From the IMG/VR virus record IMGVR_UViG_3300027782_000040: a stretch of 64,000 bases of DNA; one strand, 5' to 3'. Positions within the stretch are counted from its first letter, which is position 1; every line of letters starts with the position of its first letter. The stretch is from a virus. The notes under the pieces are model-generated. The model worked only from the letters and a program-made list of their open reading frames with translations, did no database searches and was not told the origin of the DNA. A program made the position numbers and the translations under genes. Positions 7,937-64,000 of this stretch are shown here, piece after piece.

Positions 7937-10807
7937 ATGGCTAATCAGAATATTTTAAGATTTTACGGTTCCAAACTCGATTTGAAGGTAGATTATTCCG
8001 AATTATATGACTATGAACTATCAAAAGTTCAAATGGATTATAATGAAGAGGTCTTAGATTTCGATACGGAAATAACATATACAGGACTAACAATAGATTC
8101 TTCTTGTTTAACAGGACTAACTTCACCTTGGGAAGTAGAGGTAAATAAACCATACACTGGCGGTACCTGTGATTTTACTGTTCGTAGAAGAACAGAGAAG
8201 GGTTGGACATTAGATTTAGTTTTCGATAGATTAGTAACTGGATCGACATTTTACTATTTAGGAATTAAAGATGATTTAGCCAATGGGAATTACGCGGATA
8301 ATAATTTAACATTCTCATTTACCAATAATAAAAAAATAAAATGGGAATCTTACCATTATTCGGGGTCGTGTAATCCAGATAGCGGGTACACGGAGTCATA
8401 TTACACATTAACAGGTAATACTCCTGAATTGTGTGCGAATGGAATATATGACGATTTTAATATTACAATCACATTTGATAGATACACATATCTTTATGAT
8501 TGTGAGATTGAGAATGAGGGAGGATTTAATGATTTAATATTAGGTCCGCACGCGGTTAGTTATACTGATGAATTATGGGCTCCGACGACTGGAGATACTG
8601 GTAGTTTCTTTTCGGGTTCATTTATAGGACATTCAACACAAATCACCACAGGATACACAATGACTACAGGTTCATTAAATTGGATTACGGGTGATACTGA
8701 ATATAGTTATGTTGAAGAATTAAATAAGAAATGGGCCAGCGAAAAACAAAAAAGATTAGGAACACTTAAAATTTATCATAACGGTAAAAGAATATATAAA
8801 TTAGAAAACTTTGAGGAAATAATTCCATCATTAAGGTCTTCTGAAAATGAAATCGTACAAATTTTTGGTAGTAATGGTCTTAATGGTGTTTTAAAACAAG
8901 TTAAGTATTTTGAAGAACCGTTGGATTTTGTTCATGTTAATCATCATTATTTAACATCAATTAAACCAAATTATTCAATATATGGTTGTTCAGATGTTTT
9001 ACCAAGTCCTACACCAACACCAACTCCGAGTATTACTCCAACTAAAACGGTAACACCGACCCCAACACCTACACAGACAGGAACACCAACACCAACACCA
9101 ACACCTAGTATCACACCAACCAATACTGTAACGCCAACCAATACACCAACTATAACCCCATCACCTACACAGGCACCAGTATTTGAAACAGGGTTATTTA
9201 ATTTTGATTTTGATTATATGTTATGTGAATATTTCTTTAGTGATGGTTCTGATATGGATACTATGACTTATGTATCTAATCCATTAATAATGAATAATGA
9301 CTTTACCAATGGTTTACCTGGTGATTATGTTGGAACATGTGCATCATCGTCTAATGGACCGTCTAATGGAAATTGGATTGATCCATTTTTACTTTATGGT
9401 GGTGATAATTTAGGAACAGGAACTGAGGCAATTTTATTTGATTTAAATAAATTTAAAACACAGTATCCCTCCACAACAGATTTAGAATTAACGTTTACGG
9501 CAACATGGTACGGTTCAAAAGGATTTATACCTGTTATTATGAAATCAACAATGTGGAAAGGAGGAACACCGATTCAAGATGGTTACACATTTATTAATAC
9601 AGGTGCCACTCAAACAAAATTAGTTAAATCTAACGGTACAATTATAACAAGTAATACACAAAATTGCGAGGCATTTGAAATTGTTGATAAATTTGAATTT
9701 AATATATCATCCAAAAATGGTTACTTCTTAAATGGTAATCAAACTCCAACACCAACACCTACACCAACAAATACTGAAACTCCTACCTCAACGCCAACAC
9801 CTACGGTTACACCTACCAATACACCAACACCAACAGGAAGTGAAACTCCAACACCAACACCTACTGTTACTGAAACTCCAACTAATACACCAACACCTAC
9901 TGTTACTGAAACCCCTACTAATACCCCAACACCTACGGTTACGCCTACCAATACACCAACACCAACAGGAAGTGAAACTCCAACACCTACACCAACAAAT
10001 ACGGTTACACCTACGGAGACACCTACAAATACACCAACACCAACTATAACGCCAACAAACACGGTAACACCTACTCCAACTATATTGAGTACATATACTA
10101 ACACCGCAGAGATTTTTTACGACGCTGCAAATGCTTTGTCATACTCTGGTGGTACAACATTAACAAATATTGGTACATTGGGAAATGTTAGTGGAACGTT
10201 AGGTACTATAAGTGGTGTAACATTTGAAAGTGGAATTGCTCGTGGAGTATTTAATTTTAGTGGAAACACTTTTGCAAACTTAAGAAATAAAATTACATTT
10301 GACACATTTGATTTTGGAAATGAAATGACAACTACAGCTTGGATTTATCCTCGTGATTACGAACATAACGATTATTTCATTACATTAATGTCAAATGCTG
10401 TACAAAATTCATCTAGCCCTGGATTTAAAATGGTGTGGAGACTTAATTATAATGATATTAACGCCTATTCTAATCAAATGTTGTTTGAAAATGCGGGTGC
10501 AAGCGGTGGTTCAACACGTTTTACAAGTAGCCAACCAATAATAGGAAATACTTGGCAACATATTGCATATAAGTTTGATAAGACCAATAGAAAAATTAGT
10601 TTTTACCATAATGGTATTCTTTTAGGTGCTGAACAGATTACATCTGTTGGTGTTATAACAAACCAACCTTGGGTTATTGGGTCATTTATTGATGATGCGT
10701 TCTTTATGAATGCTAATTTAGGTGAATTTAGAGTATATAAAACATTGAGAAGTGATTCCAATATTTCAGACGAATATAATAACACCAAGTCAAGATACGG
10801 TTTATAA
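7937..10807 (+). CDS. Virion adhesin/fibre-like protein: Pro-Thr linkers and C-terminal LamG/ConA-like domain
   Basis: Two (PT)n tracts; C-terminal YDAAN..SYSG...WQHIAY...FYHNG...LGEFRVY...[11 protein letters not shown]. Start likely 7937, downstream of the promoter motif (track gives 7916). Confidence 0.8.
9002..9180 (+). repeat. Pro-Thr coding repeat 1
   Basis: ACACCA-type repeats encoding PTPTPT. Confidence 0.85.
9743..10081 (+). repeat. Pro-Thr coding repeat 2 with higher-order duplications
   Basis: TPTPTVT(E)TPTN units; [23 protein letters not shown] block duplicated. Confidence 0.9.
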
Positions 10808-10829
10808 TAAAAATATATATTTATAACAT

Positions 10830-11183
10830 ATGGAATTCTTTATAAGACAAGGGGCATCTGACCCAATATTAAAATTGAGGATGATTGATGATGGTAAAAA
10901 CGACAAATCATCATTTAACGATTTATTGGAAAATGCAACAATCACATTTGACATGTTTGATGTTAGTACCGGTGAACCCGTGTTATTAAATGAAACTTGT
11001 AATATCACAACAAGAACAAAACTATATAACCAAACGACTGATGAATATTATATCATTTATAGATTTACCGAAGAACAGACATCTGAAATAGGTAAATTTG
11101 AAGGAAAGGTAAATGTGTCGTTTGATAATGGTAATAAACTTATATTACCTGTTAAAGAAAAACTTTACATTAATATTTTTTAA
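10830..11183 (+). CDS. BppU N-terminal-like adaptor domain protein
   Basis: FFIRQG...P.L...LENATITFDM...YRF...T...GKFEG.V.V.F.NG...ILP pattern. Confidence 0.6.
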   Translation: MEFFIRQGASDPILKLRMIDDGKNDKSSFNDLLENATITFDMFDVSTGEPVLLNETCNITTRTKLYNQTTDEYYIIYRFTEEQTSEIGKFEGKVNVSFDNGNKLILPVKEKLYINIF

Positions 11184-11232
11184 TTTCATTTCATTAGTAG
11201 AATTTATACTATTTATGATAAACAAAAAATAG

Positions 11233-12303
11233 ATGCCATCAACAAATCATTTTAAATTCGGAGCCTCAGGAATAAGTTCAGCAACTAGAGGCGGTTTTAG
11301 TGTTGGAGTAAAAGAAGGGGCCGATTACGGACCAACATCAACAACAGGTTTTTGGAACGGAGTAACTCCACCAGTAAGTGGATACACCATTTACGTAGAT
11401 AAAGCTTCACAAGGTCCTAGTATACACGTTGCGTCTAACAATTCACAATGTATTGGTATGTTATTGGCGATGGGTGCCACAGGTAGTACAATAGAAAATG
11501 TATTGGCGTGGGCTGATGGTCAAGCAAATATGGTAGTTTTAAGTGAAGAATTAGTTATAGGTGATTTACCAGGTGCGGGACCAAGTATTGTAACATCAGG
11601 TTTAGTATTAAACTTGGATGCTGGAAATGTTTCTTCATATTCCGGAACTGGAACAGTTTGGAATGACTTAAGTGGAAATGGATATACAGCTACAATGACT
11701 AGTTCTAACCCAACATTTGTAAGTAACGGTGCAGCTAGTTACTTTAACTTATCTAATAACAATAAATACATATACAACCACGATACAAGTGTACAAGGAT
11801 TTACATTTGCAACTAATACTGGAATACCACAAACTAATGGTTTCACAATTGAATTTATGTATTATATATCATCTTACAACTTTGGGAATGGACAAAATTC
11901 TATATTCTTAAATTCAGGTACAGGTGATGGTTATAGATTTGGTATTCTTAATGATGATTCTTTATACTTTATGATTGGAGATGGTAGTGGAACTGATAAT
12001 GCAACTGTAGGTAACGGAAGTGTAACTGTTGGAGCATGGTATCATATTGTTGGAGTATTTGATAGAACGAACGCATTAGGTGGAGGTGTTAATATATATG
12101 CATATTCAAACGGTATATCAAAAGGATCAACGGGTATTTCGCCACGTTCAGGAATGTCATTAGCAGCACCTAACATATCTTATGATGGTTGTTGTTCAGC
12201 ATTTGACGGACGATTAAATACATTAAGAGTTTATAATCGAGCATTAAATTCAACTGAAGTCACTCAAAACTTTAACACTGTAAAATCAAGATTTGGATTA
12301 TAA
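11233..12303 (+). CDS. Fibre/adhesin: shared N-terminal module + LamG domain
   Basis: IVTSGLVLNLDAGN..SYSGTGTVWNDLSGNG, WYHIVGV, RVYNRAL...EVTQNFN..KSRFGL. Confidence 0.8.
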   Translation: MPSTNHFKFGASGISSATRGGFSVGVKEGADYGPTSTTGFWNGVTPPVSGYTIYVDKASQGPSIHVASNNSQCIGMLLAMGATGSTIENVLAWADGQANMVVLSEELVIGDLPGAGPSIVTSGLVLNLDAGNVSSYSGTGTVWNDLSGNGYTATMTSSNPTFVSNGAASYFNLSNNNKYIYNHDTSVQGFTFATNTGIPQTNGFTIEFMYYISSYNFGNGQNSIFLNSGTGDGYRFGILNDDSLYFMIGDGSGTDNATVGNGSVTVGAWYHIVGVFDRTNALGGGVNIYAYSNGISKGSTGISPRSGMSLAAPNISYDGCCSAFDGRLNTLRVYNRALNSTEVTQNFNTVKSRFGL

Positions 12304-12671
12304 AATAAAACAAAAAATATATGTCACAACCAAGTACAAATCATTTTAAATTCGGAGCATCCGGAATAAGTTCAGCCACAAGAGGTGGCTTCAGCGTTGG
12401 AGTAAAGGAGGGTGCCGATTATGGCCCAACCTCATCAACAGGTTTTTGGAACGGAGTAAAACCACCAGTAGGTGGATACACCATTTACGTAGATAAAGCA
12501 TCACAAGGTCCAAGTATTCATGTGGCATCTAACAATGCTCAATGTATTGGTATGTTATTAGCAATTGGTGCTACAGGTAGTACAATAGAAAATGTATTGG
12601 CGTGGGCTGATGGTCAAGCAAATATGGCAGTTTTAAGTGCAGAATTAACTCTTGGTGATTTACCAGGTGCT
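11236..12671 (+). repeat. Direct repeat of ~340 bp (11236-11577 and 12330-12671) encoding near-identical N-termini
   Basis: PSTNHFKFGASGISSATRGGFSVGVKEGADYGPTS...GDLPGA present in both genes. Confidence 0.9.
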
Positions 12672-13148
12672 CCAGTAACTTATACTATAGGTCAAGCAGC
12701 CTTAGGTGGTATAATCGCTTATATTGATGGTGGTGGTTCTACAGGTACATCAGGATTAGTTGCTACAGTTGCAGATGTTTCTTCAGGTAATGCATCATGG
12801 GGATGTATTGGAACGGCGATATCGGGTGCAGATGGTACCGCTATAGGAACTGGAAATCAAAATACAATAGATATAATGGCTGGATGTGCTACCGCAGGAA
12901 TTGCAGCTAGAATTTGTGGAGATTTAACACAAAGTGGATATTCTGATTGGTATTTACCAAGTAAAGATGAGTTAAATGCATTATATACAAACAAAGCTTC
13001 TATTGGAGGTTTTGCGAATGACGCCTATTGGTCTTCTACGGAATATCACATTGCATCTGCAGCATATTACCAAGATTTCACTAATGGTTTTGTAACTGCA
13101 ACACCTAAGAACTCTGATTTATATGTACGTGCAGTGAGAAGCTTCTAA
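12321..13148 (+). CDS. Fibre/adhesin: shared N-terminal module + DUF1566/Lcl-like (C-type lectin fold) domain
   Basis: IGTGNQNT..I, GYSDWYLPSKDEL, YWSSTE, YVRAVRSF. Confidence 0.8.
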   Translation: MSQPSTNHFKFGASGISSATRGGFSVGVKEGADYGPTSSTGFWNGVKPPVGGYTIYVDKASQGPSIHVASNNAQCIGMLLAIGATGSTIENVLAWADGQANMAVLSAELTLGDLPGAPVTYTIGQAALGGIIAYIDGGGSTGTSGLVATVADVSSGNASWGCIGTAISGADGTAIGTGNQNTIDIMAGCATAGIAARICGDLTQSGYSDWYLPSKDELNALYTNKASIGGFANDAYWSSTEYHIASAAYYQDFTNGFVTATPKNSDLYVRAVRSF

Positions 13149-20716: not shown

Positions 20717-20717
20717 C

Positions 20718-50985: not shown

Positions 50986-53900
50986 ATGATACAGAAGCAT
51001 AGAATATCCACAAACATTGGGAAGGACCAAATAGTCAATCTTGAATTAAAACAAGATTTTGATTTTTTGGAAGTTCTATCATTAAGATTCACTCAAAAGG
51101 ATGTTTATTCATCAATGTGTTCGGATTACGGTGTGGTATGTGGTAGAATTACTGTTAACAATGGTTTAGGTGTACCAAACGCCAGAGTATCGTTATTTGT
51201 TCCACAATTACAAATTCATTCAAATGATCCAGTTATATCTGCGTTATATCCATATACAGAAATTGGGGACAAAGACAGTAACAATTATAGATACAATTTG
51301 TTACCATCAAGAAAACAACATGGCGGACATGAACCAACCGGTACATTTTTTGACCAAGAAGATATTTTAACAAGAGAAGAAGTTTTAGAAGTGTATGAAA
51401 CTTATTATTCGTATACAGTTAAAACTAATAGTTCTGGTGATTTTATGATTTGGGGGGTTCCATTAGGACAACAAACAATTCACGTTGATGTTGATTTATC
51501 TGATATTGGTTGTTTCTCTTTAAGACCTGATGATTTTATTAGACAAGGTGCTGGTTTAGACCAATTTAAAACATCATACGCTTTTAAAGCATCAGAAGAT
51601 TTAAATTCGTTACCACAAATTGTTTCATTTGATAAAACGATTGAAGTTTATCCTTTTTGGGGTAATAATGATTTTTGTGAAATTGGTTTAACAAGAACTG
51701 ATTTTGATTTATCCGATAAAGGTGTAAGAATTGAACCAAAAGCAATTTTATTAGGTTCAATATTTTCTGACCAAGGGAATAGTACTGTAAATAAAAATTG
51801 TACTTTAAGAGATGGAATGGGTAATAAATGTAACTTAATAACCGAACCAGCAACGGTTGAAATATTAAGATTTACAAATAAAAAAGACGAAAATAATAGA
51901 CCAATATTGGAACTTATGGAAACAAGTGAAGATATTGATGATAGTGGTTCGTTTATGATTTCAGTTCCAATGAATATGGAATATGTTTACACAAACGAAT
52001 TTGGTGAGAACGAAATTACAAACGACCCAAATAAAGGGGTACCAACATCCGCATGTTATAGATTTAGAGTATCAACAAAAAATGAATCATTAGGTAGGGT
52101 TAGAACTGTAGCTTCTTATTTAATTCCAAATATTAGGGAATATGCAACAACGGAATCAGAAATTGATAAATCATATACTTGGTCAACAAATTGGAATGAT
52201 TATCCGACGGGGGCAACAAACAATAACATCCTTTTTAATAATGTTAATGGGTCATATTACCCACAAGATTATTTTTATAGATTTAATTATAATAAAATTT
52301 ATAGTGTATCGTCATTTTTTGGATCTTATAGTGAAGGTAATTTAGGGATTACACAAATAGCACCAAAGGAGGAAGACGATTGTCAAAACAATTCACTCAC
52401 ACCTCCAATTAATCATGCGACACAAACAGTTACCTTCGCAATTTTATTGGCTATAATATTGAACACATTCGAAAGAATAAGTTATTACACAATCATTGCG
52501 GCTATACAGGTTTTAATTGTTCCATTTCAAGCATTATATAATTGGCACATATACATACGTGCTTTAAAAGTAACATTGATAGATTATTATCCATTTAGGG
52601 CGGGTGGTATTATTGATGTTGATACTAAAGTTATTGAACCATTACAAAGATTCGGTACTGTTCGTTTAGGTATTGCAATATATCCTGAATGTGAAACATG
52701 TGACAACTTAGATTATATAAATGATTTGCCAACAACAACGACAGATCCAGAATTAACGTTTCTTAAAGTTGCAACAGGAACAGGTGTTACGGATACATCT
52801 TTATACGCCACATGTGGGGTTGAGATTTTTGACGAATCAAGTGTTAGGATATTTTTATCAATTCCAACTACTGGAACCACATGTGCATCCGTATCACCTA
52901 TCTTCACAACGACAGGTACCACTATAACTAATATTATTGATAATCCAGGTAGATACATTATAAAATTTAACGATACAGGAGAATATGGAAATCTTAGTGT
53001 TTATGGGTATGACATATCGGGATCAGGAACAACAGCATATTATTACGATGATACAACGGGTTTAAGTTATACAGGTCAAACATTACCGACAGGAAGTATA
53101 GGATATGAAATATTTGATTCACTATCATTTTTAATTGGAGGTTCAAATACTTCAGGATTAAATAGTGAATTAGAAGGAGGATGTCAACAATATGTTACCG
53201 TGTATAAAGAATCAATTGTTTATGGAACATATTGTGCTAGTAACGCATCTACACCATATAGTGGATTAACATCGGCAAATATAAAATTAGGTACTGTTTG
53301 TACCACAGGTATAACCGTTGGTCAAGTTATTGCTGGTGTTAATAGTAATCCTTGTGGTACATGTGGCACACACAGTGGATTTTCTGAATTTAGATATGGA
53401 TTATTTACAATTATACCGGCGGCGGCAATTGCCAATTGGGGAGATAATTTTGATGCAATTACCGAATACGCAAGAAGAAAACTTGTTGCTAAAGTGTTCT
53501 GTGGTGGTATAGCAAATTATAAATTTATTGACAATTGGTTGACCGGTTCATTATATATGTTTCCATTTAAAGCAAAAGTTAGATGGGATAATGAGGAAAC
53601 ATTAGATTTAAATGTTAGAAGAACAAAATATTGTCCAGATTTAGTTTATTTTAAAGCAGGTACGGTGGAAAATCCTGATAAAAGATTTTATTATAGATCT
53701 ACATATTTTAATGGTACAACATTTAGTAGAAGTAGTAGAGAAAGTTTAGGTCACCCAACAACAATTGTTGATTTAGGACCAAGAGATGAATTTATAAAAG
53801 AAATATGTGTGGACCCACAATTAGACCCAAACTGTTCGGTTGTTAGAGATATTGGACCAACATCCTATCAAAATTTTAAAGAGATGTTAGGGTTATATAT

Positions 53901-54801
53901 TAATTATAAATTAGATTATTTAGCAACAGACCAAAATACAACAGGTGATTACAATTCATTTTTTGAAAACAATGGATACGGTGTACCTGGAACGGTAATG
54001 AATGGGGACATTCTTCAACTAATTTCAATAAATAATGAAGTTGGCATTGAAGAATTTGATTTACAAAATAGAAATTACGCAGCATATAATCCACAAGTGT
54101 TGGATGTTGAACAATATCCTGGATTATTGGATGGAGGACCACTACCAATAAATCTCGTATTAGATGATGGTGAAGGATATAGAGTTAGGGCATGTTTAAA
54201 TGAACCCGGAAGATTGACTGAATCATCACAAAAAGTTCCATTTTACTTGTGGGAAAAAGGTGGTACAGGTTTTGGTTCGAGTGTTAATCAACATTGGGAC
54301 TATACTACACCAATCTCAACTGCAAATGGTAATTTACAACCATTACAAGGTATGACCTATAATTACAAATACAGTGGAGATACGACACACAAATATTTGT
54401 TATTACCAATGACAAAACAATATAGTGGTGATACGTTTACATATACAGGTGTAACATATAATGATGTGTATGCGGATATTGAAACAACAGGAGCAACACA
54501 TACAACTTATAATAATCAAGAAGAAGGATTCACAGTACTCGAAATTGCCACAGGCACATTAGATAATCCATTAACGGGAACACTATGGATTAGAACGGGA
54601 GAAACAAGTAATTGGGCATCAAAGGCATGGACAAACGACCTTGATTTTATGGTAAAACCAACATCAACAAATTACGATGGTACAAAACAAATACTATCAA
54701 CACCATTTCTGTTTTATTTTGGATTAAGACCAGGTAAAACCGCAATAGATAAACTAATAGAAAAATACGGACCAAAAGGTGCGTTCCCGTCTGCTGAATA
54801 A
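50986..54801 (+). CDS. Large virion protein, 1271 aa (Cys-rich, with a hydrophobic segment)
   Basis: Follows the wedge genes; N-terminal GVVCGRI...GVPNARVS...TNSSGDFMIWGVP beta-sandwich-like motif. Confidence 0.65.
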   Translation: MIQKHRISTNIGKDQIVNLELKQDFDFLEVLSLRFTQKDVYSSMCSDYGVVCGRITVNNGLGVPNARVSLFVPQLQIHSNDPVISALYPYTEIGDKDSNNYRYNLLPSRKQHGGHEPTGTFFDQEDILTREEVLEVYETYYSYTVKTNSSGDFMIWGVPLGQQTIHVDVDLSDIGCFSLRPDDFIRQGAGLDQFKTSYAFKASEDLNSLPQIVSFDKTIEVYPFWGNNDFCEIGLTRTDFDLSDKGVRIEPKAILLGSIFSDQGNSTVNKNCTLRDGMGNKCNLITEPATVEILRFTNKKDENNRPILELMETSEDIDDSGSFMISVPMNMEYVYTNEFGENEITNDPNKGVPTSACYRFRVSTKNESLGRVRTVASYLIPNIREYATTESEIDKSYTWSTNWNDYPTGATNNNILFNNVNGSYYPQDYFYRFNYNKIYSVSSFFGSYSEGNLGITQIAPKEEDDCQNNSLTPPINHATQTVTFAILLAIILNTFERISYYTIIAAIQVLIVPFQALYNWHIYIRALKVTLIDYYPFRAGGIIDVDTKVIEPLQRFGTVRLGIAIYPECETCDNLDYINDLPTTTTDPELTFLKVATGTGVTDTSLYATCGVEIFDESSVRIFLSIPTTGTTCASVSPIFTTTGTTITNIIDNPGRYIIKFNDTGEYGNLSVYGYDISGSGTTAYYYDDTTGLSYTGQTLPTGSIGYEIFDSLSFLIGGSNTSGLNSELEGGCQQYVTVYKESIVYGTYCASNASTPYSGLTSANIKLGTVCTTGITVGQVIAGVNSNPCGTCGTHSGFSEFRYGLFTIIPAAAIANWGDNFDAITEYARRKLVAKVFCGGIANYKFIDNWLTGSLYMFPFKAKVRWDNEETLDLNVRRTKYCPDLVYFKAGTVENPDKRFYYRSTYFNGTTFSRSSRESLGHPTTIVDLGPRDEFIKEICVDPQLDPNCSVVRDIGPTSYQNFKEMLGLYINYKLDYLATDQNTTGDYNSFFENNGYGVPGTVMNGDILQLISINNEVGIEEFDLQNRNYAAYNPQVLDVEQYPGLLDGGPLPINLVLDDGEGYRVRACLNEPGRLTESSQKVPFYLWEKGGTGFGSSVNQHWDYTTPISTANGNLQPLQGMTYNYKYSGDTTHKYLLLPMTKQYSGDTFTYTGVTYNDVYADIETTGATHTTYNNQEEGFTVLEIATGTLDNPLTGTLWIRTGETSNWASKAWTNDLDFMVKPTSTNYDGTKQILSTPFLFYFGLRPGKTAIDKLIEKYGPKGAFPSAE

Positions 54802-56582
54802 TGGAAAAGAAACAAATCATATTACCAAGTAAAAAGTTCGCAAAGGCGGATGACCAAGAATTAGAATTAAAACTAAATCTTGATAATAGTGATACACTTA
54901 TGCGAATAGGTGAAAGGGATATAATATTAGATATAGATGAACAATATTATAAAGAACGTAATGAAAGTATAAATTATAAGATATACGGAAAATTAAAAAT
55001 GATTTTTAGAAATTTATATTCCGGTAGTACAGGTTCATATGAACCTTTAACGAAGAGTCTTTATTTAAATGGTGATGGTAGTGATAATAATTTCAATGGA
55101 TTTTTACCATATGATGAATTTGCATTTTTAAGAAGGGACGTTTATAGGGAAGTAAATTTACCAGTAACTGGAAATACAATAGGGACCTTTACACCAAATA
55201 TAGTAAAATCAGGATCAACGGCACACACAACTATAACACCAATATCGGCACCATATCAAAATTGGAATTTATATTTAAGTTATGTGTATAGTGGTGATAG
55301 TAATTTTAATATGGTTTATACGTTAACAGGTGTAACAGGTAGTACGAAAGTTAGTTTTACCGCTAAAGATGGTATACCATTTAGGGTTGTAAATTATAAC
55401 ACATACTATGAATTGACATCACCAGTTGAACATGGAATGAACGAAGGAGAACACGTGGTTTTATCAGGTGGAACGTTAACAGGATTATCAAACCCAACTG
55501 GTTCAACATTTTATATTAATTCAGTTGGTAATGAAACATTTGACTCTGGAAAATATGTTATTAATATTTTAAAGTCACAAATAAAAACAGGAACAACACT
55601 CAATACAATTATGTTAGGTAAAAGATGTAAAGATTTTACCAATATCGTTCCCTCAACATCTAAATATTACGTTCACAAACATAAAACATTAACTAACACA
55701 GGTGGATATATAATGGATTCACTTGGATTTGAAAGTCCAGTGTTTGAAGATGAGAAAAAATTGTTACTTGAAAATAGTGCAGGAATAAATGATGTTGTGG
55801 TTGAAAGAAATAGAATGGAATCTGTTTTATACGATTTTAAAGAACCATTTAAATTAAGCGGATTAACAAATAATTTAGGATTTAGTCCAACAAATGTTTT
55901 TGTTACTGCAATTTTTAGAAATGGAAATGGATATTTTAATTATCCACCAAAGGTTGGATATAAATTTAATTTCCACGATACGTGGATTGATGAACATTTT
56001 AGTGGAACTACGTCAAACGAAACAAGTTTAACAAGTTCTGGATTTACAAAAAGTGGAGTTACATTTTTAAGTGGTCAAACATTACCAATCGGTTCAATAT
56101 TAAATGGTGCCTTTGTTGAGTATAATCCAAAAGAAATGACCGAAAGAATTGTTAGTGAAGCATTTCATAAAATCACAAATCCCACAAATATATTTGACCA
56201 TAATCAAGATATGAATGTAGATGGTTTTAGTGGTGCCACATCTGGAAATACAATGGGATTAATATACCAACCACATTATAGAATTAAATTAAGAGAATTA
56301 TCACCATATACTGAAACGGCAAATACTAATGATATTTTCAACTTACCTGAAAATGCAAAGTATGACCCATATGATAAAGTTTGGAGATGGAGAGATATAT
56401 ATGACCATGGTTATGTTGATTCCGATGGATTCGGAACAGATTTTCCTTTTATGAATGGAAATCATTATGTTAAAGCAAACATTAATTTCTATTTAAGAAA
56501 TGAAAGATATTATAAAAATAAATCAAATGGAATAATGAATTTCATGGATGTAAATAATAAAAATAGTAATTCAGATTGTTAA
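54801..56582 (+). CDS. Putative virion structural protein, 593 aa
   Basis: Translationally coupled within the structural operon; rich in (S/T)GxT. Confidence 0.65.
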   Translation: MEKKQIILPSKKFAKADDQELELKLNLDNSDTLMRIGERDIILDIDEQYYKERNESINYKIYGKLKMIFRNLYSGSTGSYEPLTKSLYLNGDGSDNNFNGFLPYDEFAFLRRDVYREVNLPVTGNTIGTFTPNIVKSGSTAHTTITPISAPYQNWNLYLSYVYSGDSNFNMVYTLTGVTGSTKVSFTAKDGIPFRVVNYNTYYELTSPVEHGMNEGEHVVLSGGTLTGLSNPTGSTFYINSVGNETFDSGKYVINILKSQIKTGTTLNTIMLGKRCKDFTNIVPSTSKYYVHKHKTLTNTGGYIMDSLGFESPVFEDEKKLLLENSAGINDVVVERNRMESVLYDFKEPFKLSGLTNNLGFSPTNVFVTAIFRNGNGYFNYPPKVGYKFNFHDTWIDEHFSGTTSNETSLTSSGFTKSGVTFLSGQTLPIGSILNGAFVEYNPKEMTERIVSEAFHKITNPTNIFDHNQDMNVDGFSGATSGNTMGLIYQPHYRIKLRELSPYTETANTNDIFNLPENAKYDPYDKVWRWRDIYDHGYVDSDGFGTDFPFMNGNHYVKANINFYLRNERYYKNKSNGIMNFMDVNNKNSNSDC

Positions 56583-56583: not shown

Positions 56584-58395
56584 ATGAAAATATTAAGAAA
56601 AGATACTGATTTAAATATATTATTGAATACTGAAACTGATTTTCAAACAAATCTCGGTTGGGAAGAAAACTTGAAAGAATTTGAAACTGAAATATTAAGT
56701 GATATTATTAACCCAATTGAAAATTATGAAACGGTTAGATATATTCATAAACCATATACGTCTAGTGGAGTAACACAAACCGATATTTGGTTTTATTTTT
56801 ATTTTCAAAGCGGTGGAACATATGTTCAAGATTATACCCCACAAGGTATAAGTTCACAAGAAAATGAACATATGTTAAAACAGGCGACTGAGAGTTTTTT
56901 TAGATTAGAGTTTTTTAAAACACCAGGAACTGTATCAAGTAATATATTAACATGTGAACCACCAACAAGACAAAATAGAAAATTAATATTTGCAAAAAAT
57001 TTGTCATTACCGTTAGGTGAGAAAATGTTTTATAATCCACTTAATGGTTATATACATTTACCTGTTTTTAGAGGATCAAATTATAGTAATAAAGAAAATA
57101 TGTATTTCTTTTGGTTCCAAGATGAAAGTGTTTTAACTGAAACTAATTTAAGTGGTACAACAACAGGTAACACCTTCTTTATGACAGCAAAGTTTTATAA
57201 TGCAAAAGAAGGTACAATTTTAGATTTTACAAATGATTGTTACAGTACGGGTCACACTATTACTGAACAAAATGATATGTACTATCAAGTTGATATTAAT
57301 AAAACAGATTATTCGTATCAAGTTTATTATTACAATGGTGTAGTAAAATGTGAAGAAGTTGGTTTTACAAACAAACCAATAATGTTTTTTGAAAGAGGAG
57401 GTGGAACGGCACCAACTAACATAGTATATCACACATGTTCAAATGTAACACCTACACCGACACCAACTGCAACCCGTGTAGCAACACCAACACCAACTCC
57501 AACTCCAACACAAACTCAAACACCAAGTGGATCATCATCGGGACCAACTTATTATAGTGATGTTGTTGGTCGGAGCGCATCGTCAGTAAGTGATGCTTGT
57601 AGTCAAGTAAGTACAATTGGGGTTACGGGAAGTGGAACCTTATTCTGTAATTCGGCAACATTTACATCTACGGACGGATATTCAATGGGTACTGGAAATT
57701 ATTATTTATCAAACGGTTCAAAATATGTACAAGTATCACATACTATTTATACGAATCTATTTACTGTCATCGGTGGTGGTTGTACAACATGTCCTGGCGT
57801 AACAATATACGATTGGTACACACTTGAAAATTGTTGGGACCAAACTACTGGTTATACAACAGGTCTTACAGTAGGAACATATGCTGTAAATAATAGAGTA
57901 ACAACATTTTTAGATATTGGTACAATATGGAAAGTAATTGCAATTAGCTCAAGTAATCCGGCACCATTAATAAATAAAATATCTGTCGCACCAAGTTTAG
58001 ATTATTTTAGTGCAATACAAAATGGTTGTCCACCAATATTTGAATATTTTTTAAGTGATCCATATACAGGTACCACATTATTCTGTTCATCACCTGGTAA
58101 ATCAACTGGAACATTAATAAAAACGTTTTCACCTACAATATCAGAAATTTTAAATTATCCAGTTTATAATTCAAGTAAAGTTTTATTTGAAGGTGCGGGT
58201 AATGATTATAATTATTTTATTTCCACCTCTGCTGGTGTAAATTCATATACAAACGGTAGCACACCTTTAAGTAACAATAGAATATTAATAAAAATTGACG
58301 GTACAATAACAAACAACGGTGCAGGAACCCCTGGTTACGTTTTAGATGTATATTCAACACCTTGTAGTGGAGGTGGCGGAGGAGGAAACTTATAA
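56584..58395 (+). CDS. Putative virion protein with Pro-Thr linker and Cys-rich modules
   Basis: TPTPTPT linker, paired Cys, Gly-rich end. Confidence 0.65.
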   Translation: MKILRKDTDLNILLNTETDFQTNLGWEENLKEFETEILSDIINPIENYETVRYIHKPYTSSGVTQTDIWFYFYFQSGGTYVQDYTPQGISSQENEHMLKQATESFFRLEFFKTPGTVSSNILTCEPPTRQNRKLIFAKNLSLPLGEKMFYNPLNGYIHLPVFRGSNYSNKENMYFFWFQDESVLTETNLSGTTTGNTFFMTAKFYNAKEGTILDFTNDCYSTGHTITEQNDMYYQVDINKTDYSYQVYYYNGVVKCEEVGFTNKPIMFFERGGGTAPTNIVYHTCSNVTPTPTPTATRVATPTPTPTPTQTQTPSGSSSGPTYYSDVVGRSASSVSDACSQVSTIGVTGSGTLFCNSATFTSTDGYSMGTGNYYLSNGSKYVQVSHTIYTNLFTVIGGGCTTCPGVTIYDWYTLENCWDQTTGYTTGLTVGTYAVNNRVTTFLDIGTIWKVIAISSSNPAPLINKISVAPSLDYFSAIQNGCPPIFEYFLSDPYTGTTLFCSSPGKSTGTLIKTFSPTISEILNYPVYNSSKVLFEGAGNDYNYFISTSAGVNSYTNGSTPLSNNRILIKIDGTITNNGAGTPGYVLDVYSTPCSGGGGGGNL

Positions 58396-58404: not shown

Positions 58405-59280
58405 ATGAAAAGAATTAACCATACCATTAAAAGAAAAAAAATACCTGAAGTGAAATTAGTTTCATTAACAGGTAAGACATGGTACGATTCAAATAATAAC
58501 CCAACACCATGGACGGGTGACACTGAATTTTTAGTTACAGGTTTTACACCCGACACAGGTTATGTTGTTTATAACGTAACCGGTGGAACTGTAGATGGTG
58601 GTTATTATTATAAATGGAATACACCAACAGAAGACACATGGAATTTAATTGTTGGTACAGGTACGACAGAACAAGAAATAGAAACCCATGTTAATAGCCA
58701 AATACATGAAGATTTTCAACTACCATTATTTTTAGAAGCAACGGCTGATGAAATGGGAGATATGGTTGATTTTGATAAAAATATTGGACATAATGAAATT
58801 AGTGCAAACTTCGCATATGAAAGTGTTTGTACTGAAACTGGTAGTACAATAACAATTAACAACACAACAACATATCAATTAGTTAATATAATTTTGGCTA
58901 ATGATACGAATCCAGACGGAACAACGAATGTAACGAGTGTTAGAAGATTGGCTACAGAAATATCCGAACAAAATGTTTTAGACGAATTAGAAGATTTTTT
59001 AGTGGTTGATGGACAAGATTTTTCAATATCGGGATCATCATTTACGGTACATTGGGGAGACGAAACAACATCACCAATTGGAATTAATGGTAGTGTAACA
59101 AAATCATTTGATGTTGCCGAAGAAAAAACAATTAGAATAGTTTTTGAGTCACCATATTTAACAAATCAAGTGGTTAAAGTTGTTAATTGTGGTGAAACTG
59201 CAGTGAGTTACATGAGAATTAATACCGAAAACAATGACCCTATTCAAAGTGAAAATAATAATTACATAAATGTCGATTAG
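58405..59280 (+). CDS. Putative virion protein with PKD-like C-terminus
   Basis: FTVHWGD motif; operon position. Confidence 0.55.
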   Translation: MKRINHTIKRKKIPEVKLVSLTGKTWYDSNNNPTPWTGDTEFLVTGFTPDTGYVVYNVTGGTVDGGYYYKWNTPTEDTWNLIVGTGTTEQEIETHVNSQIHEDFQLPLFLEATADEMGDMVDFDKNIGHNEISANFAYESVCTETGSTITINNTTTYQLVNIILANDTNPDGTTNVTSVRRLATEISEQNVLDELEDFLVVDGQDFSISGSSFTVHWGDETTSPIGINGSVTKSFDVAEEKTIRIVFESPYLTNQVVKVVNCGETAVSYMRINTENNDPIQSENNNYINVD

Positions 59281-59318: not shown

Positions 59319-61664
59319 ATGGCAGGACTAGATAAAAAAATTAGTGAATTACTCGAATTTTCGGGAGATACCTCAGGTTCATGGTTAATTGTAAATAATA
59401 GTAGTGAAACGGCAACATCTAAAATTAGAAGGGAAGCTTTTCTAAGTGGATTTAGCGGTGGAAGTAATGGTACATCAGGTTCTTCAGGTTCTAATGGAAC
59501 TAGTGGAACAAATGGAACTTCCGGAACAAATGGTACATCGGGAACTAATGGTTCATCTGGAACTAGTGGTTCGTCAGGTTCATCTGGAACTAGTGGTTCA
59601 TCAGGAACTAGTGGTAGTTCAGGTTCTTCAGGAACAAGTGGAAGTTCTGGAACTAGTGGTTCGTCAGGTTCATCTGGAACTAGTGGTTCATCAGGAACTA
59701 GTGGTTCATCAGGAACTAGTGGTTCTAACGGAACAGACGGAACTTCTGGTTCTAATGGTACTGATGGTAGTTCTGGAACAAGTGGATCTAATGGTACAGA
59801 CGGCACATCGGGAAGCAATGGTACGGATGGAACGAGTGGTTCTAATGGTACCGATGGTTCTTCAGGAAGTAACGGTACTAACGGTTCTTCTGGAACATCA
59901 GGAGATTCATTATTTGCCGAAACAGGTTCATATTGGTATACAAAAAATAATATACAAATAGATGGTACGTTAACAGCTAAAGAATATTATGTTACATTAA
60001 TATCTTCTTCAGTAATGTTTGTATCAGGGTCAAATAACTTTGGTAACACATTAGATGACAATCATAATTTTACAGGCTCAGTTAATATATCAGGTTCATT
60101 AACAATAAACGGAACATCATATACCGCGGCAACTTCAGGAACTAGCGGTAGTAATGGAACCGATGGTTCTTCTGGTTCATCAGGTTCATCAGGTTCAAAC
60201 GGTACAGACGGTTCATCAGGTACTAGTGGTAGTAATGGAACAGACGGGTCTTCAGGAACTAGTGGAAGTAATGGTACTGACGGTTCATCAGGTTCCAATG
60301 GTACAGACGGAACTTCAGGTACATCAGGTTCTAATGGTACTGATGGTTCATCAGGTACTAGTGGAAGCAATGGTACAGATGGTTCTTCAGGAACTAGTGG
60401 AAGCAATGGTACAGATGGTTCTTCAGGAACTAGTGGAAGCAATGGTACAGATGGTTCTTCAGGAACTAGTGGTTCTAATGGTACAGACGGAAGTTCAGGT
60501 ACATCAGGTTCTAATGGTACAGATGGTAGTTCTGGTACTAGTGGTTCTAACGGTACAGACGGAAGTTCAGGTTCTTCAGGTAGTAATGGAACAGACGGTT
60601 CTTCAGGTACTAGTGGAAGTAATGGAACAGATGGTAGCTCAGGTTCTTCAGGTTCTAATGGTACTGACGGGTCTTCTGGTTCTTCAGGTTCAAATGGTAC
60701 AGATGGTTCTTCAGGTAGTAATGGTACAGACGGAAGTTCCGGAACATCAGGTTCTAATGGTACCGATGGGTCTTCAGGAACTAGTGGTTCTAATGGTACA
60801 GATGGTTCTTCAGGTACTAGTGGTTCTAATGGTACAGATGGTTCTTCAGGTACTAGTGGAAGCAATGGAACAGATGGGACTAGTGGTTCTAATGGTACAT
60901 CAGGTGATTCATTATTTGTGTCGGGTGCTGGATTTTATTATACAACAAATAATTTACAAATTACAGGTTCAGTAAAAATTAAAGGTACAATTACGGCTGA
61001 AGAATATAATGTTACATTAGTATCTTCTTCTGTTTTATATTCATCAGGATCAACAAAATTTGGTGACACATCTGATGACACACATCAATTTACTGGTTCA
61101 GTATTAGTTGAAGGAAAAGTTAATGCTAGTTCATTAACGGGTTCAATTAATTTTAATAATTTAACAAATGTTCCTTCATTAGTATCGGGTTCATCACAAG
61201 TATCATTCGGTGGTATAACAGGTGTTCCGTCAGGTATTGTATCTAGTTCATTACAAATAAAAAATTATGGAGATTTTGCTACAACCGGTTCAAATACATT
61301 TAAAGGAAATCAAATAATTTCAGGGTCATTAACTGTTACAGGTAGTGTAAGTGCCGCGGCGTATTATGAAGTATCGGATATTAGATATAAAGATATTATT
61401 TCAGTTAATCCAAATGTAGATTTATCAACATTAGATGTGATTCAATTTACACTTAAAGGTGATAGTCAAGTAAGATATGGTTATTCGGCTCAAAGTGTTA
61501 AAGAAGCTTGTTCTGACTTAGTCGTTGGTGATTTACCAATGAGTGTCAATTATAACGATGTCCATACTCTCAAAATACACCAATTGGAAAATAAAATAAA
61601 ACAATTAGAAAATAAATTAGAGTCATTGTATGTCATTATCATGGACAGGGATAACCAAAAATAA
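59319..61664 (+). CDS. Tail fibre with Gly-X-Y (GTS/GSS/GSN/GTD) repeats and a C-terminal peptidase S74-like chaperone domain
   Basis: Two long Gly-every-third tracts; SDIRYKD...YGYSAQ.V...VNY followed by a coiled coil. Confidence 0.8.
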   Translation: MAGLDKKISELLEFSGDTSGSWLIVNNSSETATSKIRREAFLSGFSGGSNGTSGSSGSNGTSGTNGTSGTNGTSGTNGSSGTSGSSGSSGTSGSSGTSGSSGSSGTSGSSGTSGSSGSSGTSGSSGTSGSSGTSGSNGTDGTSGSNGTDGSSGTSGSNGTDGTSGSNGTDGTSGSNGTDGSSGSNGTNGSSGTSGDSLFAETGSYWYTKNNIQIDGTLTAKEYYVTLISSSVMFVSGSNNFGNTLDDNHNFTGSVNISGSLTINGTSYTAATSGTSGSNGTDGSSGSSGSSGSNGTDGSSGTSGSNGTDGSSGTSGSNGTDGSSGSNGTDGTSGTSGSNGTDGSSGTSGSNGTDGSSGTSGSNGTDGSSGTSGSNGTDGSSGTSGSNGTDGSSGTSGSNGTDGSSGTSGSNGTDGSSGSSGSNGTDGSSGTSGSNGTDGSSGSSGSNGTDGSSGSSGSNGTDGSSGSNGTDGSSGTSGSNGTDGSSGTSGSNGTDGSSGTSGSNGTDGSSGTSGSNGTDGTSGSNGTSGDSLFVSGAGFYYTTNNLQITGSVKIKGTITAEEYNVTLVSSSVLYSSGSTKFGDTSDDTHQFTGSVLVEGKVNASSLTGSINFNNLTNVPSLVSGSSQVSFGGITGVPSGIVSSSLQIKNYGDFATTGSNTFKGNQIISGSLTVTGSVSAAAYYEVSDIRYKDIISVNPNVDLSTLDVIQFTLKGDSQVRYGYSAQSVKEACSDLVVGDLPMSVNYNDVHTLKIHQLENKIKQLENKLESLYVIIMDRDNQK
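59461..59904 (+). repeat. Gly-X-Y repeat tract 1
   Basis: 9-nt periodic GGN-WSN-NNN repeats. Confidence 0.9.
60134..60905 (+). repeat. Gly-X-Y repeat tract 2 (36-nt unit, GSNGTDGSSGTS)
   Basis: Tandem degenerate 27/36-nt units. Confidence 0.9.
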
Positions 61665-62949
61665 AATATTAACTGATAGTGATATTAATAGAGCCGCTGA
61701 AGATGGTTTTTTAACATCAAAAACAACGATTCCAACAACAGATAAAGGAGTTACAAAAGAACGTGCACTACAATATATTAATATTAACCCCCTACATGTT
61801 TCATATACTGGAAAATCGTCCAATCAATTAATTACTAAAGAAGATATTAAAAAACCTTGTGATGAATGTACATCATATAACATCGTTATTAATCAGAGTG
61901 ATTTAAACGATATATCAGGTAACACCGATAATAAGATTTATTTATATTATTATCCTTGTGGAACTTATAGTGGAGTTACACCATATATAACTTTTTCATA
62001 TCCAGGAACATTTACAGATTATATTTGTGCTCAAAGTTGTGCCGTTACAGAACCATATTTATTTTCAAGTTTTGATGAAGGTAAAATATTAACAGATTCA
62101 AGTTATGTTGAATTAGCAGGAAATTGTGCAACATCAACATTTAGAAGCGTTTCTTGTAGTGGTACCACAGTTTATAATGTTGCATCTGAAGGATTTAATT
62201 ACCCACCTACACAATTTGATTTAGGACAAACTTATGGTAATGTAGATATTACAATTAGTATTAGTGGAAATACAAATTCAAACAACGAAATATTCATCGG
62301 TAATAGAGCTGAGAGTTATGGTACAACATATGCATTCGGTACAGGTAATCAAAGTATATCAGATACAGTAGGTTTTATTAGTAATACAACTAAAACAACA
62401 TTAGACGTTGTGGTTTATTCAACTACAACAGGTAATACATTTACACCATTTAATGTGGTATTTACTGCGTCATGTCCTGCAAGTGATGACACTTGTTCAA
62501 TTGCAACAACAGGTGGTACATATTATAGTGGGACAACAATTAACGTAACAGCAATAGGAAATATTAAATACGAAACAACAACTGGAATGGTATTTAAAAA
62601 CATAACATCAACTGGAACGTACACAATAAACGATTGTATATTAATCAATTCAATATCACCAGGTTATCCACTAATTAGTGTTGCAGCATATAATAATGTT
62701 GTTACGGGAAGTAGTTGTAGTTCGGTTACAGTAGATACGTCAGGTTCAGAATCATCATCAACAGGAACAACAGGAAACTGTAGAACCATAACATTTAATG
62801 CAAATCAAGGATTTAGTGCCACCACATATTGGATAGATTGTGACGGCATTATACGAACAAGATTTGTCGATAGAGGAACCATATTCACAACCACAGGACA
62901 AGATGGTAGTGCGTCGGGATTACCATTAACATATGGGGCATTTTTATAA
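61630..62949 (+). CDS. Putative Cys/Thr-rich virion fibre-associated protein
   Basis: Operon position; many Cys and (S/T)GxT motifs. Confidence 0.65.
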   Translation: MSLSWTGITKNKILTDSDINRAAEDGFLTSKTTIPTTDKGVTKERALQYININPLHVSYTGKSSNQLITKEDIKKPCDECTSYNIVINQSDLNDISGNTDNKIYLYYYPCGTYSGVTPYITFSYPGTFTDYICAQSCAVTEPYLFSSFDEGKILTDSSYVELAGNCATSTFRSVSCSGTTVYNVASEGFNYPPTQFDLGQTYGNVDITISISGNTNSNNEIFIGNRAESYGTTYAFGTGNQSISDTVGFISNTTKTTLDVVVYSTTTGNTFTPFNVVFTASCPASDDTCSIATTGGTYYSGTTINVTAIGNIKYETTTGMVFKNITSTGTYTINDCILINSISPGYPLISVAAYNNVVTGSSCSSVTVDTSGSESSSTGTTGNCRTITFNANQGFSATTYWIDCDGIIRTRFVDRGTIFTTTGQDGSASGLPLTYGAFL

Positions 62950-62960
62950 AATAAAATAAC

Positions 62961-63257
62961 ATGAGTACAACATATACAACCATACCTATAAAACAAATAA
63001 GTAACAATTTTGGAACTGTTAATAAAGTTATTTGGTTTGATGTTACAAATATTCAAGGTACGTTTGGGGTTAATTTATTTATCACACCAAATCAATCTAC
63101 AGATATGAATATTGTAATATTTAATAAAGGGAGTAATGAAGAAATGTATAGAAAAACATATAATAAATCATCTGATAGTTCAGTTATAACTGATACTGTT
63201 AAATTAAGACATGTTCCTGGTCAAAAATCGGCAACTTACGGAATTAAAAGTTTATAA
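62961..63257 (+). CDS. Hypothetical protein, 98 aa
   Basis: In-operon ORF. Confidence 0.65.
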   Translation: MSTTYTTIPIKQISNNFGTVNKVIWFDVTNIQGTFGVNLFITPNQSTDMNIVIFNKGSNEEMYRKTYNKSSDSSVITDTVKLRHVPGQKSATYGIKSL

Positions 63258-63259
63258 AA

Positions 63260-64000
63260 ATGAGTATAACCGGAGGTACATTCAGTGTTGATTGTTTAAT
63301 AAGTGATGTCTCATCATCAACAAACGATTGTGGAGTTCAAAAAACTTTAACATGGTCTAATGCTGGTACCAAATCAAATATACAAAGTTATTTCTTCAAT
63401 TATAATCAATTAAATAACAAAATTCCGGTTTATGTTTTCATAAAACCAAAAGTCAAAAAGTTATTTAAATTTACATTCACACCAGGTTCAAATAACGGTT
63501 CAAATATTACTATTAATATTAATCAAAAAATAAACGGTGTTTATACGTTAGTAGATGTTGAAAATTTAAATACGCTATCTACTGAGACTTCAAAATATAT
63601 TACACTTTATTTTGATGAAAATAAAAATGATGACATTTCACTAACTTTAGATATCATTACATCAGGTGGAACGAGCGGACAAATGTATTGTGAAATTGAT
63701 TGTGACCCTGCAATAATAAGTGCTGAATTTTGTACTGGATTTACGAACTCAAATTATTATTGTACAACATGCCCAACAGTTGTAAAATTATATAGAGCTA
63801 AAACACCTAATTTACCACCAATAAATGGTATTTTGAATATTAATTCTGGATTTAGTAATTTCTCACCTTTCACAACAGGACCTTGGTATTTGGATAATGG
63901 ATTAACAATTGAAGCACCTTCAGGTGTAACATATTCTTATGCTTCTGGAGATATTGCAAAAAGATCAATATACACATATAATCCATCTACACATTCTTTT
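63260..64000 (+). CDS. Putative virion protein, truncated by the right window edge
   Basis: Not in the track. ATG at 63260, open to the end (MSITGGTFSVDCLISD...). Confidence 0.7.
   Translation, partial: MSITGGTFSVDCLISDVSSSTNDCGVQKTLTWSNAGTKSNIQSYFFNYNQLNNKIPVYVFIKPKVKKLFKFTFTPGSNNGSNITININQKINGVYTLVDVENLNTLSTETSKYITLYFDENKNDDISLTLDIITSGGTSGQMYCEIDCDPAIISAEFCTGFTNSNYYCTTCPTVVKLYRAKTPNLPPINGILNINSGFSNFSPFTTGPWYLDNGLTIEAPSGVTYSYASGDIAKRSIYTYNPSTHSF

Follow-up and report, generated by a model that had tools for sequence, protein, structure and literature searches.

A Ser/Thr-Gly-x-Thr motif switched on or off genome-wide in the outer tail proteins of uncultured jumbo myoviruses, a possible acceptor site for phage-directed O-modification

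The window analysed here, the whole stretch of 64,000 nucleotides of IMG/VR virus record IMGVR_UViG_3300027782_000040, is part of an uncultured AT-rich (~31% GC) jumbo T4-like myovirus, whose outer tail proteins are densely marked with the tetrapeptide [Ser/Thr]-Gly-x-Thr. This motif is real and acts at the protein level, it is limited to outer tail proteins, and it is switched on or off for whole genomes. The reading preferred here, at a probability of roughly 0.42, is that it may serve as a linear acceptor motif at which exposed tail surfaces undergo an O-modification directed by the phage, most probably glycosylation. An earlier note on the window had described a virion-restricted motif [ST]-G-x-[TS] and proposed it as a dedicated sequon for glycans attached by phage-encoded enzymes.

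The observed number of [ST]G.[ST] in each protein was compared with the mean of 1000 shuffles, and in ten outer tail proteins of the window phage [ST]-G-x-T stands 4-20 times above composition-matched shuffles. The excess persists when shuffling is confined to blocks of 10 or 20 residues (z 4-13 with the per-protein and 10-residue block shuffles). A scan of all patterns of the form a-b-x-c (~7000) in the structural set returned TGxT (53 versus 9.8 expected) and SGxT (45 versus 8.0) as the top non-repeat patterns, with only Pro-Thr (PT) linker repeats ranking above them; PTxT and TPxP top the scan because of three TPT-x-TPT linker tracts (residues 622-715; window 9779-10060) that lie between the domains of a 963-residue protein. 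Within the motif the +1 residue is invariably Gly, the x position is free and the +3 residue is Thr in 92 cases and Ser in 18, while the preceding residue (-1) is hydrophobic/aromatic or Thr (Tyr, Leu, Ile, Val, Thr). No enrichment was found for TGxS, nor for NGxT and TNxT. The originally proposed pattern is thus real and can be refined to one with mostly Thr at +3 and a hydrophobic or aromatic -1 residue, and the hand counts given with it were accurate, agreeing with the per-protein positions and the shuffle test.

Codon usage at the motif positions equals the background of the same genes, so the signal resides in the protein and not in the DNA, and a DNA-level motif is ruled out. The comparison of structural with non-structural proteins against a shuffled background, which the earlier note had suggested, bore out its expectation, since the excess stays and the replication and minus-strand proteins hold 0 or 1 copies: 1 in PolB, 1 in DnaB, 0 in NrdJ and 0 in all eleven minus-strand genes at 1-7883. 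That minus-strand block includes PhoH, dUTPase and glycosyltransferase (GT)-like genes, and the replication genes of the window comprise PolB, a DnaB-like helicase, a UvsX-like recombinase and ribonucleotide reductase. In the late block the tail sheath and baseplate hub come first, followed by two giant proteins and a gp6-like wedge protein; a row of orphan proteins and a collagen-like fibre close it. The carriers are listed below with observed versus expected [ST]G.[ST] counts.

54801..56582, plus strand: 593-residue orphan tail/baseplate-periphery protein, 17 versus 1.4 (z 13, and z 18.5 in a second comparison), 15 of them [ST]GxT
50986..54801, plus strand: 1271-residue protein in a gp7-like position directly after the gp6-like wedge gene, 15 versus 3.1 (z 7)
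56584..58395, plus strand: 603-residue orphan tail protein, 10 versus 2.8, with tandem SGxT-TGxT pairs
58405..59280, plus strand: 291-residue orphan tail protein, 7 versus 0.8 (z 7; block shuffles z 6-7)
61630..62949, plus strand: 439-residue orphan tail or fibre protein, 11 versus 3.1
63260..64000, plus strand: N-terminal 247 residues of a very large protein, 5 versus 0.85
22784..25222, plus strand: tail sheath of 812 residues, 9 versus 2.2 (z 4.7), matching Pfam Phage_sheath_1 and 1C
7916..10807, plus strand: 963-residue protein with a motif-rich N-terminal third, PT linkers and a C-terminal concanavalin A (ConA)-like lectin domain, 14 versus 4.3 (z 5)
28998..33713, plus strand: 1571-residue tail protein, 7 versus 2.9, moderate enrichment (z 4.4)
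34026..39791, plus strand: 1921-residue tail protein, 9 versus 3.1, the motifs clustering at residues 930-1085
11233..13148, plus strand: two paralogous lectin-type proteins with 5 and 4 motifs, borderline (p ~0.05)

The protein encoded at 54801..56582 is the densest carrier, with z 11-13 under local (block) shuffles, and it has no Pfam, PHROG or PDB match, a PDB profile search included. Its orthologues (58-90% identity) occur on 27 IMG/VR contigs, and 21 orthologues retain 7-19 motifs. Their alignment contains ~20 columns with the motif in most sequences, in which Ser and Thr interchange at position 0 and x is variable, and the sporadic sites occur at about the chance rate. An AlphaFold2 model of this protein (17-sequence alignment) reached a mean predicted local distance difference test (pLDDT) score of 36.6, too low to place the motifs. 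In the protein at 50986 the N-terminal 349 residues are motif-free, and they are the only part that aligns to a 709-residue protein with 0 motifs from the relative G007; a PDB sequence search with the window protein gave no match. The full-length orthologue (1989 residues) of the protein truncated at the window's end, taken from the near relative G002, has 20 motifs. In the lectin-domain protein at 7916..10807, which matches Laminin_G_3 at 7e-14, 9 motifs fall within the first 258 residues.

The carriers show no mutual BLAST similarity and no internal repeats, Pfam and PHROG searches with the six densest returned no repeat or domain, and an iterated profile of the motif-rich sheath insert matched only other sheaths. 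A hidden domain shared among the carriers is ruled out at the sensitivity of BLAST and iterated hidden Markov models. Known fibre and structural repeat families (collagen G-X-Y, phage fibre repeats, immunoglobulin-like domains) were likewise rejected, as the motif copies are not positions of a recognisable repeated domain. The view that the carriers are unrelated and hold no common structural repeat is therefore upheld by BLAST, Pfam, PHROG and the iterated profile.

The pattern is narrower than the virion as a whole. Two structural proteins of the window serve as contrasts.

49099..50931, plus strand: gp6-like baseplate wedge protein of 610 residues, an internal virion protein, 0 motifs
59319..61664, plus strand: collagen-like fibre, non-carrier, with [ST]GxT depleted (2 versus 12.5) and S-G-x-S arising from the G-X-Y repeat

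The baseplate hub has 1 motif, and the 162-residue gene after the sheath, a probable tail tube by position only, has 0. Five large Ser/Thr/Gly-rich proteins of G002 (97-112 kb) show no excess. The capsid protein of G008, a distant motif-rich phage, has 2 motifs against 0.35 expected and was called not a carrier. The label virion-restricted consequently holds with respect to the replication enzymes, which are at chance, and the motif does not extend to the gp6-like wedge protein, the hub, the collagen-like fibre and the G008 capsid protein. A 427-residue orphan of G008 next to the head genes (L155:17304-18587; G008 137304-138587) carries 14 motifs versus 0.7 expected (z 16), in contrast to the unenriched capsid protein at its side, and possibly decorates the head or forms a neck fibre.

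The sheath allows the motifs to be placed on a structure. It matches PF04984 (43.7 bits), PF17482 (32.6 bits) and phrog_23 (9e-68), and its AlphaFold2 model (103-sequence alignment; pLDDT 87.6, predicted template modelling score 0.85) matched chains of T4 gp18 at E 7e-29. Of its nine motifs, eight fall in the inserted outer domains (residues 130-517) and the remaining one in the C-terminal core, just as had been noted of the variable middle region and the core. In the model S130-G-E-T133 forms a two-residue hairpin between strands 127-130 and 133-136, T164-G-A-T closes strand 159-165 ahead of a short loop, S147 sits at a strand end before an 11-residue loop and T139 is mid-loop, whereas 369-372 and 451-454 are loops preceding strands and 223-226 lies within a strand. 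Because several different local conformations are represented, no single turn geometry accounts for the motifs. The expectation of exposed loops was thus borne out in part: the motifs occupy strand ends, turns and loops of the outer domains, apart from the one inside a strand, and their outward exposure is argued by analogy with gp18-type sheaths, the inserted domains of which face outward.

The G002 sheath (L041:3919-6750; G002 183919-186750) is 87-95% identical to that of the window and has an extra 131-residue insertion domain after residue 113, with five more motifs. Inserts homologous to this domain occur in 56 other sheaths of the family.

Comparison with relatives revealed that the motif is a property of genomes. 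We know of no cultured member of this phage lineage, and in the closest cultured phage, Microcystis phage Mel-JY01, the sheath shares no more than 31% identity with that of the window. Genome-wide statements are based on relatives, chiefly the near relative G002, a 211,784-bp contig that is ~63% complete and whose proteins are mostly 74-99% identical to those of the window. Open reading frames (ORFs) of retrieved contigs were called mechanically, and genomes or loci are termed ON (motif-rich) or OFF (motif-free) from observed versus shuffle-expected counts. The further comparison contigs were G007 (210 kb), G008 (232 kb) and the complete genomes G009 (339 kb) and G010 (373 kb), so that the OFF relatives comprise two complete genomes and one ~70% complete. 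The contrasts amount to about four independent lineages.

The window (102 versus 28.6) and G002 are ON, as is G008 from a third, distant clade, with 163 versus 46 and ten proteins at z 4-16; its sequence context is that of the window (hydrophobic -1; +3 Thr 114, Ser 22). In the P0176 clade 23 loci are ON at ratios of 2-7. In contrast, G007 has 15 observed versus 11.3 expected over 167 ORFs, with 0 in every large tail protein, and the complete OFF genomes of another clade stand at 54 versus 45 (G009) and 71 versus 49 (G010). Nearly all loci of the P0184 clade are OFF, at ratios of 0-1.6 with one at 2.7. G007 (sheath 42%, PolB 39% identical to those of the window) has homologues of the proteins at 50986, 54801, 34026 and 28998, of which those of 50986, 34026 and 28998 have 0 motifs. 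In the homologue of 34026 (1486 residues) the window's YTGPT is aligned with YIGNT. The co-linear sheath orthologues of Mel-JY01 and G007 have 1 motif each and other residues at the window's sites, which read SGNV, ENIS, IVNS and NGLN in G007. An Asn-based substitute motif (NGxN and similar) was not found in the very AT-rich G007.

A full HMMER search with the window sheath gave 150 representatives (33-72% identity), on whose tree the motif load is patchy, with sister pairs such as 5 versus 0 and 7 versus 0; a viral-contig scan with the motif-poor sheath P0146 returned no match. Over 36 loci the sheath ratio correlates with the ratio of the neighbouring genes (Spearman 0.58, kinship uncorrected), the latter being ~2-8 in ON loci and 0-1.4 in all OFF loci but one. 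Since homologous proteins of OFF relatives do without the motif, the folds do not require it, and since unrelated families switch together, it belongs to the genome rather than to a protein family or fold.

The difference between ON and OFF resides at position 0. G-x-T alone is ~2-fold enriched in the tail proteins of all three phages compared (window 2.0, G008 2.2, OFF G007 1.97). In ON carriers 63-70% of the G-x-T sites have Ser or Thr in front, and in all large ORFs of other ON loci 42-55%; the corresponding shares are 0/35 for the tail proteins of G007, 13% for the OFF clade and 12-23% elsewhere, with a Ser plus Thr content of 11-21%. OFF tail proteins keep G-x-T with Ile, Tyr, Asn or Lys in front. 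It looks as though G-x-T is a shared scaffold on which ON phages select a hydroxyl residue just before the Gly. A generic property of phage tail proteins was rejected as the explanation, because a single small protein of G010 is the only enriched one among those of T4, Mel-JY01, G007, G009 and G010; in T4 and Mel-JY01, TGxT and SGxT rank below 350. In other cultured phages the patterns rank high: SGxT is at rank 2 (47 versus 20) in Pelagibacter phage HTVC008M, centred on big proteins adjoining the wedge genes, and TGxT is at rank 6 in both Synechococcus phage S-RIM2 and Flavobacterium phage immuto. This excess, together with the shared G-x-T, means that the signal is in part structural. There is a mild structural preference, which the window lineage amplifies 3-10 fold further.

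Enzymes that could write such a modification were sought in the window and its relatives. The two genes that the earlier note named as GT-B glycosyltransferases have GT-B matches below threshold.

3574..4794, minus strand: probable GT-B (GT4/RfaG-like) glycosyltransferase, Glyco_trans_1_4 at E 7.6e-4 and 20.2 bits versus a cut-off of 27 (below cut-off)
1..732, minus strand: GT-like gene, C-terminally truncated (354 residues in G002), Glycos_transf_1 at E 0.049 and 13.6 bits (full length in G002)

The gene at 3574-4794 also matches the HpsO C-terminus (8e-5), and its protein-atlas neighbours are viral GT1 clusters, some with PF00534 in 56-90% of members. Its family is present in every ON contig >90 kb of both ON clades (41-98% identity) and in 0/10 OFF contigs of the P0184 clade, including two complete genomes. 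It is the only window enzyme that partly appears to follow the motif, in three of four lineages, and the best candidate for a writer in the window. ON and OFF phages cannot be told apart by simply counting their GT1 and GT2 genes.

Larger sets of putative glycan-building enzymes occur in the relatives. A 15-kb sugar island of G002 (L033:1013-16112; G002 21-36 kb) encodes two GT1 and five GT2 enzymes, TOD1/MUCI70-like and Anp1-like proteins, a DegT aminotransferase, two nucleoside diphosphate-sugar epimerase/dehydratases, a rhamnosyl-type O-methyltransferase and a sugar C-methyltransferase. An operon of G008 encodes two GT2 enzymes, GT25, GT10, Sulfotransfer_2, an FkbM methyltransferase, an adenosine 5'-phosphosulfate (APS) kinase and a nucleotidyltransferase, by which a phage-made sulfated, methylated glycan is possible in G008; PHROG searches with the motif-rich G008 proteins gave no match. 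The APS kinase and the adjacent HIGH-type nucleotidyltransferase (G002 49650-50470, L034:9650-10470; G008 L156:18039-19078) are the only enzymes that ON G002 and G008/G012 have in common and every OFF contig, two complete genomes included, is missing; they possibly make 3'-phosphoadenosine 5'-phosphosulfate (PAPS). Sulfotransferase families PF03567 and PF13469 were not found in G002, which is ~63% complete.

According to the preferred reading, hydrophobic-[Ser/Thr]-Gly-x-Thr would be a short linear acceptor motif, a sequon, on solvent-exposed strand-turn sites of the outer tail, namely the outer domains of the sheath, peripheral baseplate proteins, fibres and lectin-domain proteins. The hydroxyl residue at position 0 would be the target of a phage-encoded transferase in the cytoplasm, which would most likely attach an O-linked sugar for further phage enzymes to extend into a glycan coat on the tail. 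The modification itself, its glycan nature, the acceptor residue and the writer enzyme are what we infer; the reading is favoured because non-homologous carriers, independence of fold and whole-genome switching are how a sequon would behave, and the capacity for glycan building is there in the G002 island and in the GT, sulfotransferase and methyltransferase operon of G008. Of the dedicated glycan sequon first proposed, the overlay on non-homologous outer tail proteins and the switching by genome hold; the motif is not virion-wide, the link to GTs is weak and the glycan is a conjecture from the pattern. By extension, it is suggested tentatively that a large group of aquatic AT-rich jumbo myoviruses may practise motif-directed O-modification, with a glycan tail coat that is possibly methylated or sulfated, and that the system may have been gained or lost whole several times, so that sister phages with the same proteins are left motif-free.

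Several observations weigh against this reading. No enzyme family separates ON from OFF cleanly: OFF G007 has an apparently intact homologue of 3574-4794 (32-38% identical, conserved blocks kept), and the complete OFF genome G009 keeps both the 1-732 gene and the GT2 gene next to it (29-36% identity), so neither of the latter two goes with the motif. The proposed co-occurrence of motif and GT genes is therefore seen for 3574-4794 in three of the four lineages and breaks down in G007 and, for 1-732, in G009. The G002 island is common to motif-free Mel-JY01 and missing from ON G008. The gp6-like wedge protein and the G008 capsid protein are non-carriers, and non-tail proteins of ON phages stand at ratios of 1.0-1.7; a promiscuous cytoplasmic enzyme might be expected to lead to avoidance of the motif in such proteins, and avoidance in non-virion proteins of ON phages was looked for and not seen. 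The pelagiphage, the cyanophage and the flavobacterial phage have a roughly two-fold excess and a top-6 rank, the pelagiphage and cyanophage have no above-threshold GT1 or GT2 match, and a baseline pattern ratio of 1.3-1.9 is found in every phage tested. Finally, the motif sites are positionally conserved at Gly-containing turns.

The main rival is a lineage-specific structural idiom, an alternative that is less probable yet carries substantial weight. Ser/Thr-Gly-x-Thr would build strand-turn-strand junctions in Thr/Ser/Gly-rich beta proteins without covalent modification, the Ser/Thr side chain capping, Gly forming the turn and Thr opening the next strand, and would have spread by descent and by convergent selection for stable uncharged surfaces. 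The two-fold enrichment of G-x-T in ON and OFF tail proteins alike, the location of the sheath-model motifs at strand ends and turns, the ~20 conserved sites among 58-90% identical orthologues beside sporadic ones near chance, the baseline and high ranks in cultured aquatic phages and the want of a clean enzyme correlate all agree with it. What speaks against such an idiom is that unrelated families of one genome switch together while OFF homologues fold without the motif, that OFF tail proteins retain G-x-T behind other residues, that the sheath motifs adopt several local geometries, and that the 5-20 fold excess over local composition lies far above the general baseline. Non-covalent recognition, in which exposed Thr/Ser hydroxyls arrayed at turns might attach weakly to host polysaccharide or dock the phage's own ConA-like lectin proteins or assembly factors, is improbable. 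ConA-like (Laminin_G_3) proteins are among the few families common to ON G002 and G008 and absent from OFF G007, G009, T4 and Mel-JY01, and the motif is confined to outward-facing parts; on the other hand, the lectin-domain proteins are themselves carriers, so that their co-occurrence with the motif may be trivial, and a four-residue motif over non-homologous folds makes no defined binding surface. We know of no precedent for non-covalent recognition by such a dispersed four-residue motif. A slimmer chance still is given to another covalent modification of the same sites, such as O-sulfation or a sulfated glycan supplied with PAPS by phage enzymes. This would suit the distribution of the APS kinase and nucleotidyltransferase pair and its place in one G008 operon with the Sulfotransfer_2 enzyme, four GTs and the FkbM methyltransferase; but only two independent ON lineages are concerned, no sulfotransferase was found in the incomplete G002, and the cultured phages with a two-fold excess are without the pair. 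An artefact of composition, low-complexity repeats or a DNA-level motif has a negligible chance: the carriers are Thr/Ser/Gly-rich and PT and collagen-like repeats are present, yet the shuffles, the codon usage and the internal-repeat search rule it out, with z 4-13 remaining after shuffling, and five large Ser/Thr/Gly-rich G002 proteins and the collagen-like fibre show no excess.

The acceptor reading has partial parallels among known systems. Virion glycosylation was reportedly described by Freeman and colleagues in 2023 for the mycobacteriophages Che8, Corndog and Myrna. As summarised in PMC12363180, the capsid and tail tube proteins of mycobacteriophages receive O-linked sugars from the phages' own transferases. 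If the window motif is modified, the process would be of the same kind, in that tailed phages would use their own cytoplasmic GTs on the surface of the assembled virion. The mycobacteriophage targets differ from the carriers described here (sheath outer domains, peripheral baseplate proteins and fibres), and neither the capsid protein of G008 nor the probable tail-tube gene beside the sheath (by position; 0 motifs) is a carrier. The summary in PMC12363180 describes no dispersed tetrapeptide sequon, and the phages concerned here are AT-rich aquatic jumbo myoviruses.

The capsid protein of the chlorovirus PBCV-1 is glycosylated at the atypical sequons N-T-x-T, represented by 302NTGT, 399NTET and 406NTAT (PMC9614988). 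The likeness would lie in a virus-specific, non-canonical four-residue sequon with Thr at +3 and in virus-encoded cytoplasmic GTs and sugar-nucleotide enzymes, to which the island with 8 or more GTs in the near relative G002 (86-98% identical proteins) is comparable. In contrast, the PBCV-1 acceptor is an N-linked Asn in the major capsid protein of a virus with a eukaryotic host, whereas position 0 here is Ser or Thr, followed by Gly, in tail proteins.

The general O-glycosylation of Bacteroidota is periplasmic and uses the sequon D-(S/T)-(A/I/L/V/M/T), with Asp at -1. It resembles the proposed motif in that its sequon is short, centres on Ser/Thr, lends itself to counting across proteomes and is over-represented in surface proteins. 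It differs in that the window motif has Tyr, Leu, Ile, Val or Thr at -1, Asp not being among the six commonest residues there, as well as Gly at +1, and in that tail assembly is cytoplasmic. On the structural side, two-residue beta-hairpins with type II' turns place Gly at the first loop position. They share with the motif a Gly in a tight turn that has beta-branched or hydroxyl residues on either side, of which sheath S130-G-E-T133 is an exact case, and the enrichment of G-x-T in tail proteins whether or not a phage is motif-rich. Unlike them, most sheath motifs lie outside two-residue hairpins, and a genome-wide on/off choice of Ser/Thr at position 0 is not predicted by turn preference alone.

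If the acceptor reading is right, these would be the first phage tails with a glycan coat placed by a sequon, and uncultured phages of lakes and oceans, in their thousands, would carry sugars at predictable positions on the part of the virion that moves and touches the host; the sheath family alone counts >8000 members in the protein library. The coat would matter for recognition of the host, for escape from its proteases or receptor mimics and for the stability of the particle, and the motif would provide a new cytoplasmic O-sequon for glyco-engineering. If the motif is purely structural, it is an unusually sharp lineage-wide sequence idiom of limited interest. ON and OFF sister phages make the question directly testable by comparative genomics and mass spectrometry.

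Some minor observations concern neighbouring genes. The G002 sugar island adjoins a collagen-like fibre with a Peptidase_S74 chaperone domain and is syntenic (29-65% identity) with islands of Flavobacterium phage immuto and Microcystis phage Mel-JY01, a pattern that points to exchange between freshwater phages. An 87-residue ORF within it (L033:3848-4111; G002 23848-24111) matches the middle of T4-type Gp23 capsid proteins (E 6e-12), with 46-53% identity to capsid proteins of several phages, and could be a piece of a capsid gene or an oddly placed copy of a small domain. In the window, the two genes at 11233-13148 share a 115-residue N-terminus that is 91% identical and differ in their C-termini (Laminin_G_3 versus Lcl_C), which gives the pair the look of one anchor fitted with interchangeable tips for receptor binding. 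Immediately ahead of the sheath gene there is a local duplication, as judged by sequence: the last 183 residues of the 450-residue protein at 20646-21998 are 38% identical to the entire next protein (22009-22512).

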